From: Escherichia coli
Lineage (GTDB): Bacteria > Pseudomonadota > Gammaproteobacteria > Enterobacterales > Enterobacteriaceae
Direction: 5' to 3' (one strand)
Length of the DNA stretch: 64,000 nucleotides
NCBI RefSeq assembly: GCF_045037415.1
Contig: NZ_CP173438.1
Shown one piece after another: positions 9,643-62,206 of this stretch (positions are counted from its first letter, which is position 1; every line of letters starts with the position of its first letter). The notes beneath the pieces are model-generated. The model did no database searches. It was not told the origin of the DNA and worked only from the letters and a program-made list of their open reading frames with translations. Both the position numbers and the translations under genes were made by a program.

Positions 9643-10280
9643 GCGTCCAACTCCTTCACCCAATTGGTCACGGTAGTGCGGATTGCATCCATCACGGCCT
9701 CCAGCGGCTGGGTGGCATCAATGGTATGAATGCTTTTATCTTGTGCTGCCAGTTCCAGATAGCGGGCGCGGGTGCGATTAAAGAAATCGAATGACTCTTG
9801 CTCAATACGATCCAGCTCACCACGGGCGCGAGCACGTTTTAAGCCGACCTCTGGGGTGACATCAAGATAAAGCGTTAAGTCAGGGCGAAAATCCCCGAGA
9901 ACAGCATCACGCAGTGTTGCCAGCATATGTTGGTCAATACCACGTCCTCCACCCTGATAGGCTTGAGTGGAGAGATCGTGGCGATCGCCAATCACCCAGG
10001 TGCCGTTAGCCAGCGCAGGTTTGATGACCGTTTCTACCAGTTGAACGCGCGCGGCATAAAACATCAAAACTTCGGCTTTATCGGTAATGACTTCATCGCC
10101 TACCGATTTGATATCCAGCACCAGGCTTCTTAACTTTTCGGCAAGTTGCGTACCGCCAGGTTCCCGAGTGAAAACCATGTCGCGGATACCCAGTTGCTCA
10201 AGCGTCTCAACCACCACGTTACGCGCGGTAGTTTTGCCTGCGCCTTCCAGCCCCTCAATGACGATATACTTACTGCGCAT
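9639..10280 (-). CDS. tmk: thymidylate kinase
   Basis: 213 aa [21 protein letters not shown]... with P-loop. Confidence 0.97.
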
Positions 10281-42741: not shown

Positions 42742-42792
42742 TTATCCTTTGTGTCCGGCAAAAACATCCCTTCAGCCGGAGCATAGAGATTA

Positions 42793-43836
42793 ATGACTGC
42801 ACCATCCCAGGTTTTAAAGATCCGCCGCCCAGACGACTGGCACCTTCACCTCCGCGATGGCGACATGTTAAAAACTGTCGTGCCGTATACCAGCGAAATT
42901 TATGGACGGGCTATCGTAATGCCCAATCTGGCTCCGCCCGTGACCACCGTAGAGGCTGCCGTGGCGTATCGCCAGCGTATTCTTGACGCCGTACCTGCCG
43001 GGCACGATTTCACCCCGCTGATGACCTGTTATTTAACAGATTCGCTGGATCCTAATGAGCTGGAGCGCGGATTTAACGAAGGCGTGTTCACCGCTGCAAA
43101 ACTTTATCCGGCAAATGCAACCACTAACTCCAGCCACGGCGTTACGTCAGTTGACGCAATCATGCCGGTACTTGAGCGCATGGAAAAAATCGGTATGCCG
43201 CTACTGGTGCATGGTGAAGTAACACATGCAGATATCGACATTTTTGATCGTGAAGCGCGCTTTATAGAAAGCGTGATGGAACCGCTGCGCCAGCGCCTGA
43301 CCGCGCTGAAAGTCGTTTTTGAGCATATCACCACCAAAGACGCTGCCGACTATGTCCGTGACGGAAATGAACGGCTGGCTGCCACCATCACTCCGCAGCA
43401 TCTGATGTTTAACCGCAACCATATGCTGGTTGGTGGTGTGCGTCCGCACCTGTATTGTCTACCCATCCTCAAACGCAATATCCACCAACAGGCATTGCGT
43501 GAACTGGTCGCCAGCGGTTTTAATCGTGTATTCCTCGGAACGGATTCTGCGCCACATGCACGTCATCGCAAAGAGAGCAGCTGCGGCTGCGCGGGCTGTT
43601 TCAACGCCCCAACCGCGCTGGGCAGTTACGCTACCGTCTTTGAAGAGATGAATGCTTTGCAGCACTTTGAAGCATTCTGTTCTGTAAACGGCCCGCAGTT
43701 CTATGGCTTGCCGGTCAACGACACATTCATCGAACTGGTACGTGAAGAGCAACAGGTTGCTGAAAGCATCGCACTGACTGATGACACGCTGGTGCCATTC
43801 CTCGCCGGAGAAACGGTACGCTGGTCCGTTAAATAA
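42793..43836 (+). CDS. pyrC: dihydroorotase
   Basis: 347 aa [38 protein letters not shown]... with metal-binding HxH motif. Confidence 0.97.
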
Positions 43837-43873
43837 TAAAAATCGTAGCTTCCTGTTGTCATTAGGTTATTTT

Positions 43874-43893
43874 ACCTGTATAAATAACCAGTA
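43874..43893 (+). promoter_or_regulatory. LexA (SOS) box of dinI
   Basis: ACCTGTATAAATAACCAGTA: CTGT-N8-CCAG, close to the LexA consensus CTGT-N8-ACAG, 20 bp upstream of the dinI ATG. Confidence 0.85.
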
Positions 43894-43912
43894 TATTCAA
43901 CAGGGGGCTATT

Positions 43913-44158
43913 ATGCGAATTGAAGTCACCATAGCGAAAACTTCTCCATTGCCAGCTGGGGCTATTGACGCCCTGGCTGGCGAACTTTCCCGCCGTATTC
44001 AGTATGCGTTTCCTGATAATGAAGGCCACGTATCGGTACGTTATGCCGCAGCAAATAATTTATCGGTTATTGGCGCGACAAAAGAAGATAAACAGCGCAT
44101 TAGCGAAATTCTCCAGGAGACGTGGGAAAGCGCCGATGACTGGTTTGTCAGCGAATAA
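43913..44158 (+). CDS. dinI: DNA damage-inducible protein I
   Basis: 81 aa ORF MRIEVTIAKTSPLPAGAIDALAGELSRRIQYAFPDNEGHVSVRYAAANN... from ATG 43913; the upstream extension in the ORF track is not supported. Confidence 0.95.
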   Translation: MRIEVTIAKTSPLPAGAIDALAGELSRRIQYAFPDNEGHVSVRYAAANNLSVIGATKEDKQRISEILQETWESADDWFVSE

Positions 44159-44179
44159 TATGCAGTGATTTTTGTTTTT

Positions 44180-44205
44180 GCCGGGTCGCCCCGGCTTTTT
44201 TATTT
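44180..44205 (+). terminator. rho-independent terminator of dinI
   Basis: Stem gccggg/cccggc around tcgc loop followed by TTTTTTATTTT. Confidence 0.85.
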
Positions 44206-44446
44206 TACTTGCGAATTGTGAGTACAAAATTTCTACACTTACTCAAAATAATTGCACAATATGCTAAAAAAATATGAATGACATGCTGTTTTATTGTTCA
44301 TATAAATCTTAAAAGCAGAAATTTATCTGTTCCCCCTTTAAAAATTCGGTGAATACCCTTACTTATTGGTATACTGAAGTTGCTTCAGATAAAAACGCAT
44401 TGAACCTCGAATAACGTTGTCTAGTAACACGAATTAGGGGGCCATG

Positions 44447-44701
44447 ATGGAAAAAAATAATGAAGTCATTCAGACTCATCCGCTCGTAGGGTGGGACATC
44501 AGCACCGTTGATAGCTATGATGCGCTGATGTTGCGTTTGCACTACCAGACCCCAAATAAGTCCGAGCAGGAAGGGACTGAAGTTGGTCAGACGCTCTGGT
44601 TAACCACTGATGTTGCCAGACAATTTATTTCGATATTAGAAGCAGGAATCGCCAAAATTGAATCCGGTGATTTCCAGGTAAACGAGTATCGGCGTCATTA
44701 A
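44447..44701 (+). CDS. bssS: biofilm regulator BssS
   Basis: ORF (M)MEKNNEVIQTHPLVGWDISTVDSYDALMLRLHYQ...; start taken at second ATG (84 aa), could be 44444. Confidence 0.88.
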   Translation: MEKNNEVIQTHPLVGWDISTVDSYDALMLRLHYQTPNKSEQEGTEVGQTLWLTTDVARQFISILEAGIAKIESGDFQVNEYRRH

Positions 44702-51884: not shown

Positions 51885-51990
51885 TTGCCGGATGCGGCGT
51901 GAACGCCTTGCCAGACCCACAAAATCTTGCAAAATCAATAAATTGCAGGAACGATGTAGGCCTGATAAGCGTAGCGCATCAGGCAACTAC
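51885..51990. repeat. REP / BIME cluster downstream of opgH
   Basis: gccggatgcggcgtgaacgcc... and gtaggcctgataagcgtagcgcatcaggc, typical REP palindromes. Confidence 0.8.
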
Positions 51991-56177: not shown

Positions 56178-56459
56178 TCAGCACACTGGCTCATGGATTA
56201 AGCACCTGATTGCAACCGTTTTCACTTTCCGTGCTTCTCCTAAAGACAGAAGCATCGACTTCGTGTAGGGTTTGCCAGCAAATTTATTTATCAACCGTCT
56301 TACAGACGCTTCCATTCTGGTTAGTGGTAGCGATGATGCTATGCATAAAAACCTTGAAGCCTGCGCCTGGCGCGGTCAGGTCGGTGTCACTATGGCAACA
56401 AGCCTAAAGGCATAACCCGACAGGGATAAGACGAAAAATCTGAGATCAGTTAACCATAT

Positions 56460-57617
56460 ATGAATCCAGTACCCGCGCAACGTGAATATTTCCTCGACTC
56501 CATCCGCGCCTGGCTGATGTTGTTAGGGATCCCTTTTCATATTTCTTTAATCTATTCGAGCCATACATGGCATGTGAATAGCGCCGAGCCGTCATTGTGG
56601 CTGACCCTTTTTAATGACTTCATCCACTCGTTCCGCATGCAGGTGTTTTTCGTTATATCCGGGTACTTTTCCTACATGCTTTTTTTACGCTATCCCTTGA
56701 AAAAATGGTGGAAAGTACGTGTCGAACGTGTAGGTATCCCGATGTTAACAGCCATCCCCTTACTGACATTGCCGCAATTTATTATGCTGCAATACGTCAA
56801 AGGCAAAGCGGAAAGTTGGCCTGGGCTGTCATTGTATGACAAATATAATACGTTGGCCTGGGAATTAATATCACACCTGTGGTTTTTACTGGTGTTAGTG
56901 GTCATGACGACGCTGTGCGTATGGATATTTAAACGCATCAGAAATAATTTAGAAAATTCTGATAAAACGAATAAAAAATTCTCGATGGTAAAATTATCGG
57001 TGATTTTTTTGTGCCTCGGCATCGGTTATGCGGTAATAAGAAGAACGATTTTTATTGTGTATCCACCCATTCTGAGTAACGGCATGTTCAATTTTATTGT
57101 CATGCAAACGTTATTTTATTTGCCGTTCTTTATCCTCGGCGCACTGGCTTTCATTTTCCCTCATCTTAAAGCCTTGTTTACCACGCCTTCTCGTGGCTGT
57201 ACCCTTGCAGCAGCATTGGCGTTTGTCGCTTATTTACTCAACCTGCGCTATGGCAGTGGCGATGCCTGGATGTATGAAACCGAGTCGGTGATCACCATGG
57301 TCCTCGGTCTGTGGATGGTGAATGTGGTCTTCTCCTTTGGCCACCGTTTGCTTAACTTCCAGTCAGCGCGGGTGACTTATTTTGTTAACGCATCGCTGTT
57401 TATCTATCTGGTTCACCACCCGTTAACGCTGTTTTTCGGCGCATACATTACACCACACATCACCTCCAACTGGCTTGGTTTTCTCTGTGGCCTGATATTC
57501 GTAGTAGGGATTGCGATAATTCTGTATGAAATTCATTTACGCATCCCATTATTGAAGTTTTTGTTCTCTGGTAAACCGGTTGTTAAGCGTGAGAACGATA
57601 AAGCACCTGCCCGTTAA
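56460..57617 (+). CDS. opgC: OPG succinyltransferase (acyltransferase-3 family membrane protein)
   Basis: 385 aa polytopic [36 protein letters not shown]... Confidence 0.92.
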
Positions 57618-61454: not shown

Positions 61455-62206
61455 GTTGTCACCCTGGACCTGGTCGTACATTTAAGAAATTAAATCATTT
61501 CAACTTGGTTGTTAACGCAACCCGTATTTTGTTAACGCTGCGTTACGATGGAAAGTATGTCTGCGGAAATATTTTTAATAACTCACCCGCGCGTTGTATT
61601 TTTCTTTTTTTGTTCATACCAAAGTATTAAAACCCACGTAAATACGCTGTTATCTACGCAAAAAATATTTTGTTTTCTTTTAAATCTCCGTTTTCCGCTA
61701 TCAAAAATCACCAGACAGTCATTCTTCTTGCCCGTCGCTGATTGCTGCGATATGTCTTGCGCACAAGCCGTGACAAACCTCGTCTTTTTGCAGTAAAAAA
61801 TTGTCCACGGTGGTATGGAGAAAAAACAAGAACGTTTTACATGACGAAAGGACTACAGCGAAATATTTTTTATATGCATTATTAGTAAGTTAGCACCATT
61901 TGTATGATTTTTTAAAATTGTGCAATAAAAACCAAATGTACAACTTTTCTATCATTTCTAAACTTAATAAAACCTTAAGATTAACATTTTAATATAACGA
62001 GTTACATTTAGTTACATGTTTAACACTTGATTTAAGATTTGTAATGGCTAGATTGAAATCAGATGTAATCCATTAGTTTTATATTTTACCCATTTAGGGC
62101 TGATTTATTACTACACACAGCAGTGCAACATCTGTCAGTACTTCTGGTGCTTCTATTTTAGAGGCAGCTGTCAGGTGTGCGAACAATAAAAAAGCGGGGT
62201 TTCATC
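61455..62206. promoter_or_regulatory. csgBAC / csgDEFG divergent intergenic regulatory region
   Basis: 752 bp strongly AT-rich non-coding gap between divergent csgB and csgD; in E. coli it is known to hold the csgB and csgD promoters, many regulator binding sites and the long csgD 5' UTR. Confidence 0.85.

Follow-up and report, generated by a model that had tools for sequence, protein, structure and literature searches.

A LexA operator over the likely promoter of chromosomal dinI in an Escherichia coli genome

Introduction

The SOS box of dinI is already known and belongs to textbook biology; the operator described here is not a new finding. In E. coli, dinI is strongly induced by UV, and Table 4 of the same study gives the exact 20-mer considered below as the LexA motif of dinI (PMC3009722). 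The gene is induced 49-fold by AZT, with a 39-fold dependence on LexA cleavage (lexA3) (PMC11228462), and ciprofloxacin induces both its transcript and its protein (PMC11002266). The dinI operator of Salmonella enterica lies at the same position, 19 nt from the ATG, and has a heterology index (HI) of 4.00 (PMC8072944). In Klebsiella pneumoniae, the dinI box overlaps a transcription start site (TSS) mapped by dRNA-seq and primer extension, and the LexA ChIP signal at the promoter falls after mitomycin C (PMC10907235).

LexA boxes over promoters upstream of DinI-family genes are also a feature of known prophage systems, both lambdoid and P2-like (Gifsy-1/2/3, mEp460 and the phage 186 tum type). 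The Gifsy-2 box, TACTGTGTTTATATACAGTG, is located 19 nt from the ATG, and in some prophages the dinI homologue is fused to, or stands before, an antirepressor gene through which the prophage is induced (PMC3121763).

Here, a site at dinI that had been picked out from the letters of a 64,000-nt stretch of DNA (the window) is analyzed with respect to its sequence, score, rarity, conservation and geometry relative to the promoter elements. LexA dependence and damage-dependent expression in E. coli, as well as ChIP occupancy and TSS overlap in Klebsiella, are taken from the literature.

Results

The window is E. coli chromosome in which the site lies within the gene order pyrC-dinI-bssS-solA, and the wider neighbourhood, mdtH-grxB-yceB-pyrC-dinI-bssS-solA, follows the K-12 order in reverse orientation. 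Of 5426 complete E. coli genomes, 5425 contain a match to the 601 nt surrounding the site, which are annotated as pyrC and dinI; the identity over these 601 nt reaches 100% in some strains, SK1144 for example. The 76-nt pyrC-dinI spacer of K-12 MG1655 is identical to that of the window, and 4565 complete E. coli genomes carry the same 70-nt promoter stretch, counted as an identity of at least 99% at the best place, which for 70 nt means zero mismatches.

The downstream gene had been named dinI in the sequence-only reading, and both the RefSeq annotation and the encoded protein agree with that name. The product matches the Pfam DinI profile (PF06183) with E = 2.1e-29 and 102 bits (cutoff 24.2) over profile positions 1–63 of 63, and is 98–99% identical to DinI of E. 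coli and E. whittamii. A significant profile match in a protein of about 80 aa places it in the DinI family. The hairpin downstream of the gene has 6 G-C pairs followed by TTTTTTATTT in the terminator scan, and it is also present in the MFE fold. The features of the locus are collected in Table 1.

Table 1. Features of the dinI locus, in coordinates of the window.
Feature	Position	Strand	Remarks
Probable -35 hexamer, TTGTCA	43856..43861	+	5/6 match to TTGACA; sequence inference; 17 nt upstream of TATAAA
LexA (SOS) box, dinI operator, ACCTGTATAAATAACCAGTA	43874..43893	+	leave-one-out HI 4.95
Probable -10 hexamer, TATAAA	43879..43884	+	5/6 match to TATAAT; inside left half of LexA box
Predicted transcription start	43890..43892	+	promoter geometry: 6–8 nt after the -10, right half of box
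Shine-Dalgarno of dinI, AGGGGG	43902..43907	+	ends 5 nt before ATG
dinI CDS	43913..44158	+	81 aa, DNA damage-inducible protein I; ATG at 43913; RefSeq dinI
Intrinsic terminator of dinI, GCCGGG-UCGC-CCCGGC then U run	44180..44205	+	terminator scan

Several other elements were observed in the surroundings. The 3' UTR of E. coli dinI is only about 45 nt long (44159–44205) and ends at the terminator. A 285-nt AT-rich non-coding stretch (44159–44443) separates dinI from bssS, an ORF at 44444–44701 (+) that matches Pfam BssS (E = 9e-24) and begins with two adjacent ATGs (MMEK...); the RefSeq bssS is the 84-aa form that starts at the second of these. A PyrC leader (Rfam RF02372, 68.7 bits), the known hairpin of pyrimidine-sensitive translational control, is found at 42743–42792 (+), directly upstream of pyrC (42793–43836). 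Further Rfam matches above the gathering score are the RNase E 5' UTR element rne5 (20676–21012, +) and the sRNAs SraB (18647–18815, -), ES056 (62061–62152, +) and ES036 (CssrF; 51921–51963, +). In E. coli d1-7 (NZ_AP040929.1), the match to the dinI region is broken in two by an IS1 transposase, and the annotation has two dinI entries, both 'DinI-like family protein', which suggests an IS1 insertion disrupting the gene. Five plasmid-borne matches to the dinI region were also counted.

The core of the box, CTGTATAAATAACCAG (43876–43891), departs from CTGT-N8-ACAG at a single position, with CCAG in place of ACAG (C for A at core position 13), exactly as had been read from the letters. The CTG and CAG triplets are intact and correctly spaced, as in the 16-bp LexA palindrome. 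The CCAG variant also occurs in the recN, ruvA, uvrD, cho, uvrB and dinB boxes (PMC3009722). The pattern CTGT-N8-ACAG with at most one mismatch is found 15 times in the window, compared to 19.3 ± 4.5 times in dinucleotide-preserving shuffles. The one-mismatch rule is thus at chance level in 64 kb and uninformative when used alone; the HI over all 20 positions is decisive.

HI was calculated over 20 positions with the Berg-von Hippel formula, as used by Lewis et al., from a matrix of 17 experimentally established E. coli LexA boxes (Table 4 of PMC3009722) from which dinI had been left out. The dinI box scores 4.95. Treated in the same leave-one-out manner, the 18 published boxes range from 0.58 (sbmC, umuD) to 12.8 (dinG), and dinI ranks fifth among them. 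Fernandez de Henestrosa et al. are said to have given, in 2000, an HI of about 6.2 for dinI. A value of 4.8 is given in another source (PMC11228462), and the upper limit for LexA boxes is put at about 15 (PMC11002266), which leaves the box well within the functional range.

A score of this quality is also rare. No 20-mer on either strand of the window scores better than the dinI box, and the next distinct site, at HI 10.87, is about 6 units worse. Under an iid background, an exact calculation gives 1.3e-8 sites per position with an HI of at most 4.95, or 0.0016 per 64-kb window (both strands) and approximately 0.12 per 4.6-Mb genome. When the window was simulated 300 times with a first-order Markov model, 4.95 was reached once. 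Imposing the AT-rich composition of the spacer on the whole window still gave an expectation of 0.009 sites, and the score is therefore beyond chance. An HI check had been proposed along with the original identification, which a value well above those of functional boxes would have spoken against; the value obtained falls among those of known boxes. The identification of the site as a LexA box consequently stands on its HI and its conservation, whereas the one-mismatch argument originally put forward for it does not carry weight.

Other candidates in the window were considered and rejected. The site with HI 10.87, AACCATATATGAATCCAGTA at 56452–56471 (+), is a weak LexA-like 20-mer consistent with chance, given that 107 of 300 simulated windows contain a site at or below this value; it overlaps the start of a 385-aa ORF, approximately K-12 opgC. 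A weak LexA-like 20-mer, TGCTGGATATCAAATCGGTA at 10101–10120 (-) with HI 11.18, is likewise consistent with chance and falls in the mltG/tmk coding region, if the window is colinear with K-12 there. In Salmonella, a second dinI box has been reported at 42 nt with HI 17.6. In the E. coli spacer, the best other 20-mer has an HI of 19.15 and was rejected as a second upstream box.

Conservation was assessed by scanning species-representative genomes with the DinI protein, which yielded 80 orthologous loci in the Enterobacteriaceae, spread over more than 20 genera (Escherichia, Citrobacter, Salmonella, Enterobacter, Lelliottia, Kosakonia, Kluyvera, Buttiauxella, Leclercia, Atlantibacter, Cedecea, Trabulsiella and others). 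A LexA box with HI between 0.94 and 5.8 is present within 200 nt upstream in all 80 loci, in the form of 30 distinct sequences. It is located 18–21 nt from the ATG in 76 loci and exactly 19 nt in 65, the distance also found in the window, in agreement with the 20 bp of the sequence-only reading. Box positions 3–9, 11 and 16–18 (CTGTATA, A and CAG) are invariant in 80/80. In an alignment of upstream regions (76 distinct sequences), the columns of the box have a mean conservation of 0.93, those of the Shine-Dalgarno region (43901–43907) 0.99 and those of the -35 hexamer (TTGTCA/TTGTAA) 0.84; in the 12 nt that separate the -35 from the box, the mean falls to 0.51. Judged from these alignments, the dinI upstream region is a classic phylogenetic footprint with a conserved box.

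The Escherichia box is weaker than most of its orthologues (HI 4.95 vs a median of 2.6) but still well inside the functional range. The weakening comes from a C at box position 2 and a C at position 15, and it is possible that this reflects lineage-specific tuning of the basal level of DinI. One E. coli representative carries a box beginning GCCTGT, with HI 5.8, and the boxes of Salmonella arizonae and Kosakonia have HI 0.94.

Two lineages differ in the distance between box and gene. In Buttiauxella gaviniae and B. brennerae (loci L063, 1357–1482, and L081), approximately 126 nt are inserted between the box and promoter on one side and the dinI Shine-Dalgarno on the other, which places the box 145 nt from the ATG. 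This inserted sequence (…GAATCCCGATGAGCTTACATAGGTAAGTGATTCGGGTGAG…CAACTTGAAGTATGACGGGT) is similar to an ERIC repeat; if it is one, it would be transcribed within the 5' UTR. In Trabulsiella (L034 and L035, about 1440–1500), an insertion of about 42 nt includes a GC-rich, hairpin-like segment (GGGCGAAAGCCGCC) and is accompanied by a different Shine-Dalgarno, and the box is 60–62 nt from the dinI ATG.

Seven phage DinI paralogues with 33–50% identity were also sampled (Gifsy-2, mEp460, YeP2, Kpn_R1, YYZ-2008, ST15-OXA48phi14.1 and EtG). In each of the seven, a LexA box with HI from 1.1 to 8.9 directly precedes the gene or the short operon to which it belongs. The association between the box and dinI therefore recurs independently of the chromosomal promoter. 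In two of these phages, tandem boxes 28–29 nt apart were observed over the annotated promoter: mEp460 (L084, 340–387), with HI 5.4 and 2.7, and YYZ-2008 (L087, 339–387), with weaker values of 9.8 and 8.9.

The promoter of dinI was assigned by sequence only. TATAAA is the best sigma-70 -10 candidate within the box, of which it occupies positions 6–11, and it is placed 17 nt after TTGTCA. The earlier proposal that the box overlaps the likely -10 region is supported, and both the hexamers and their spacing are conserved: TATAAA is found in 73/80 orthologues, TTGNNN at the 17-nt spacing in 74/80, and TTGTAA or TTGTCA in 54/80. A generic promoter scan did not call TTGTCA-17-TATAAA, as its rule demands a T at position 6 of the -10. 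The same scan returned two promoter-like matches on the minus strand near the box, which are at chance frequency (2 vs 1.9 expected) and are not regarded as real. No TSS for E. coli dinI was found in the supplementary data published with Cappable-seq and SMRT-Cappable-seq. The box covers the likely -10 and the predicted start, so bound LexA should block RNA polymerase.

Discussion

These results identify 43874–43893 as the LexA operator of chromosomal E. coli dinI, with a probability of about 97%. In its palindrome, HI, rarity and conservation, the site has the sequence features of an E. coli-type LexA box, and it overlaps a predicted promoter; its physical binding by LexA would be as described in the literature. 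The description of dinI as an SOS gene in the sequence-only reading likewise agrees with the published AZT induction (49-fold) and dependence on LexA cleavage (39-fold) (PMC11228462).

In the most likely mechanism, which is the standard one, a LexA dimer would bind the two half-sites (CTGTAT... and ...CCAG), covering the -10 TATAAA and the predicted start of the putative sigma-70 promoter TTGTCA-17 nt-TATAAA. As long as the cell is undamaged, the bound repressor would thereby keep RNA polymerase off the dinI promoter; we infer both this steric occlusion and the exact start site in E. coli. Upon DNA damage, RecA filaments would trigger LexA self-cleavage, the operator would be vacated and dinI strongly transcribed, with the transcript predicted to end at the intrinsic terminator at 44180–44205. 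DinI would then modulate RecA filament stability.

An additional role is compatible with this explanation. The site could be an ordinary operator at which bound LexA also acts as a roadblock, insulating dinI from pyrimidine-regulated transcription that reads through from pyrC. This was proposed because the 76-nt pyrC-dinI spacer (43837–43912) has no recognizable intrinsic terminator in the terminator scan. The spacer is also without unusual RNA structure (fold z = -0.45), pyrC and dinI are co-oriented in the window, in SK1144 and in K-12, and a match to the pyrC 3' end is found immediately before dinI in the 76 upstream regions aligned from orthologues. Transcripts of pyrC (stop at 43836) may thus reach the dinI promoter and operator unless they are halted by Rho or by bound LexA. 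However, nothing in the data requires such a role, and the matter could be of no consequence if pyrC transcription is terminated by Rho or its transcript is scarce. We consider the roadblock unlikely. If it were true, dinI expression would depend in part on the activity of the pyrC promoter once LexA is depleted.

It is far less likely that the conservation is due to the sigma-70 promoter only, that is, to the -10 and the discriminator/TSS region, with LexA control being incidental or weak. Some of the conservation would indeed be expected without LexA, since box positions 6–11 coincide with the -10 hexamer. However, the triplets that flank the -10, CTG directly before it and CAG 5 nt after it, are each invariant in 80/80; they are LexA contact triplets at the right spacing and not promoter elements, and the promoters of the phage dinI paralogues still carry LexA boxes in different -10 contexts. 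A promoter acting alone also does not agree with the 39-fold dependence on LexA cleavage in E. coli (PMC11228462) or with the ChIP occupancy in Klebsiella that is lost on mitomycin C (PMC10907235).

The least credible reading is that the site, in an AT-rich intergenic region, resembles the LexA motif by chance and has no regulatory role: the crude pattern (15 observed vs 19.3 expected) and the weak sites of HI near 11 elsewhere in the window do occur as chance predicts, but an HI of 4.95 does not (0.0016 expected per window, 0.009 with the AT-rich composition), and these score statistics together with a box in 80/80 orthologues, with invariant CTG and CAG, exclude it, as do the phage paralogues and the published lexA-dependent induction (PMC11228462).

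On the preferred reading, a LexA operator of dinI, this gene for a modulator of RecA filaments is one of the SOS genes under tight repression and with strong induction, as is already well established. Its value is that of a positive control, in which a canonical SOS operator was recognized from raw sequence. The full 20-position HI combined with a phylogenetic footprint separates the real site cleanly, whereas the one-mismatch core rule does not.

Comparison with known systems shows how closely the locus conforms to them. The LexA box of K-12 dinI (b1061; 1121507–1121526, minus strand) is an identical 20-mer in the same gene order; there is no difference, and the two are the same element in different E. 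coli strains. Compared to Salmonella and Klebsiella, the Escherichia box has two extra deviations (C at positions 2 and 15), the orthologous box of S. enterica arizonae being AACTGTATATATATACAGTA, likewise 19 nt from the ATG. Klebsiella differs from E. coli in having a longer dinI 3' UTR, which is processed to DinR, an Hfq-dependent sRNA that represses ftsZ through a pairing region specific to Klebsiella (PMC10907235). Finally, in contrast to the prophage operons, dinI on the chromosome forms a unit of one gene, with a single box and a terminator of its own.
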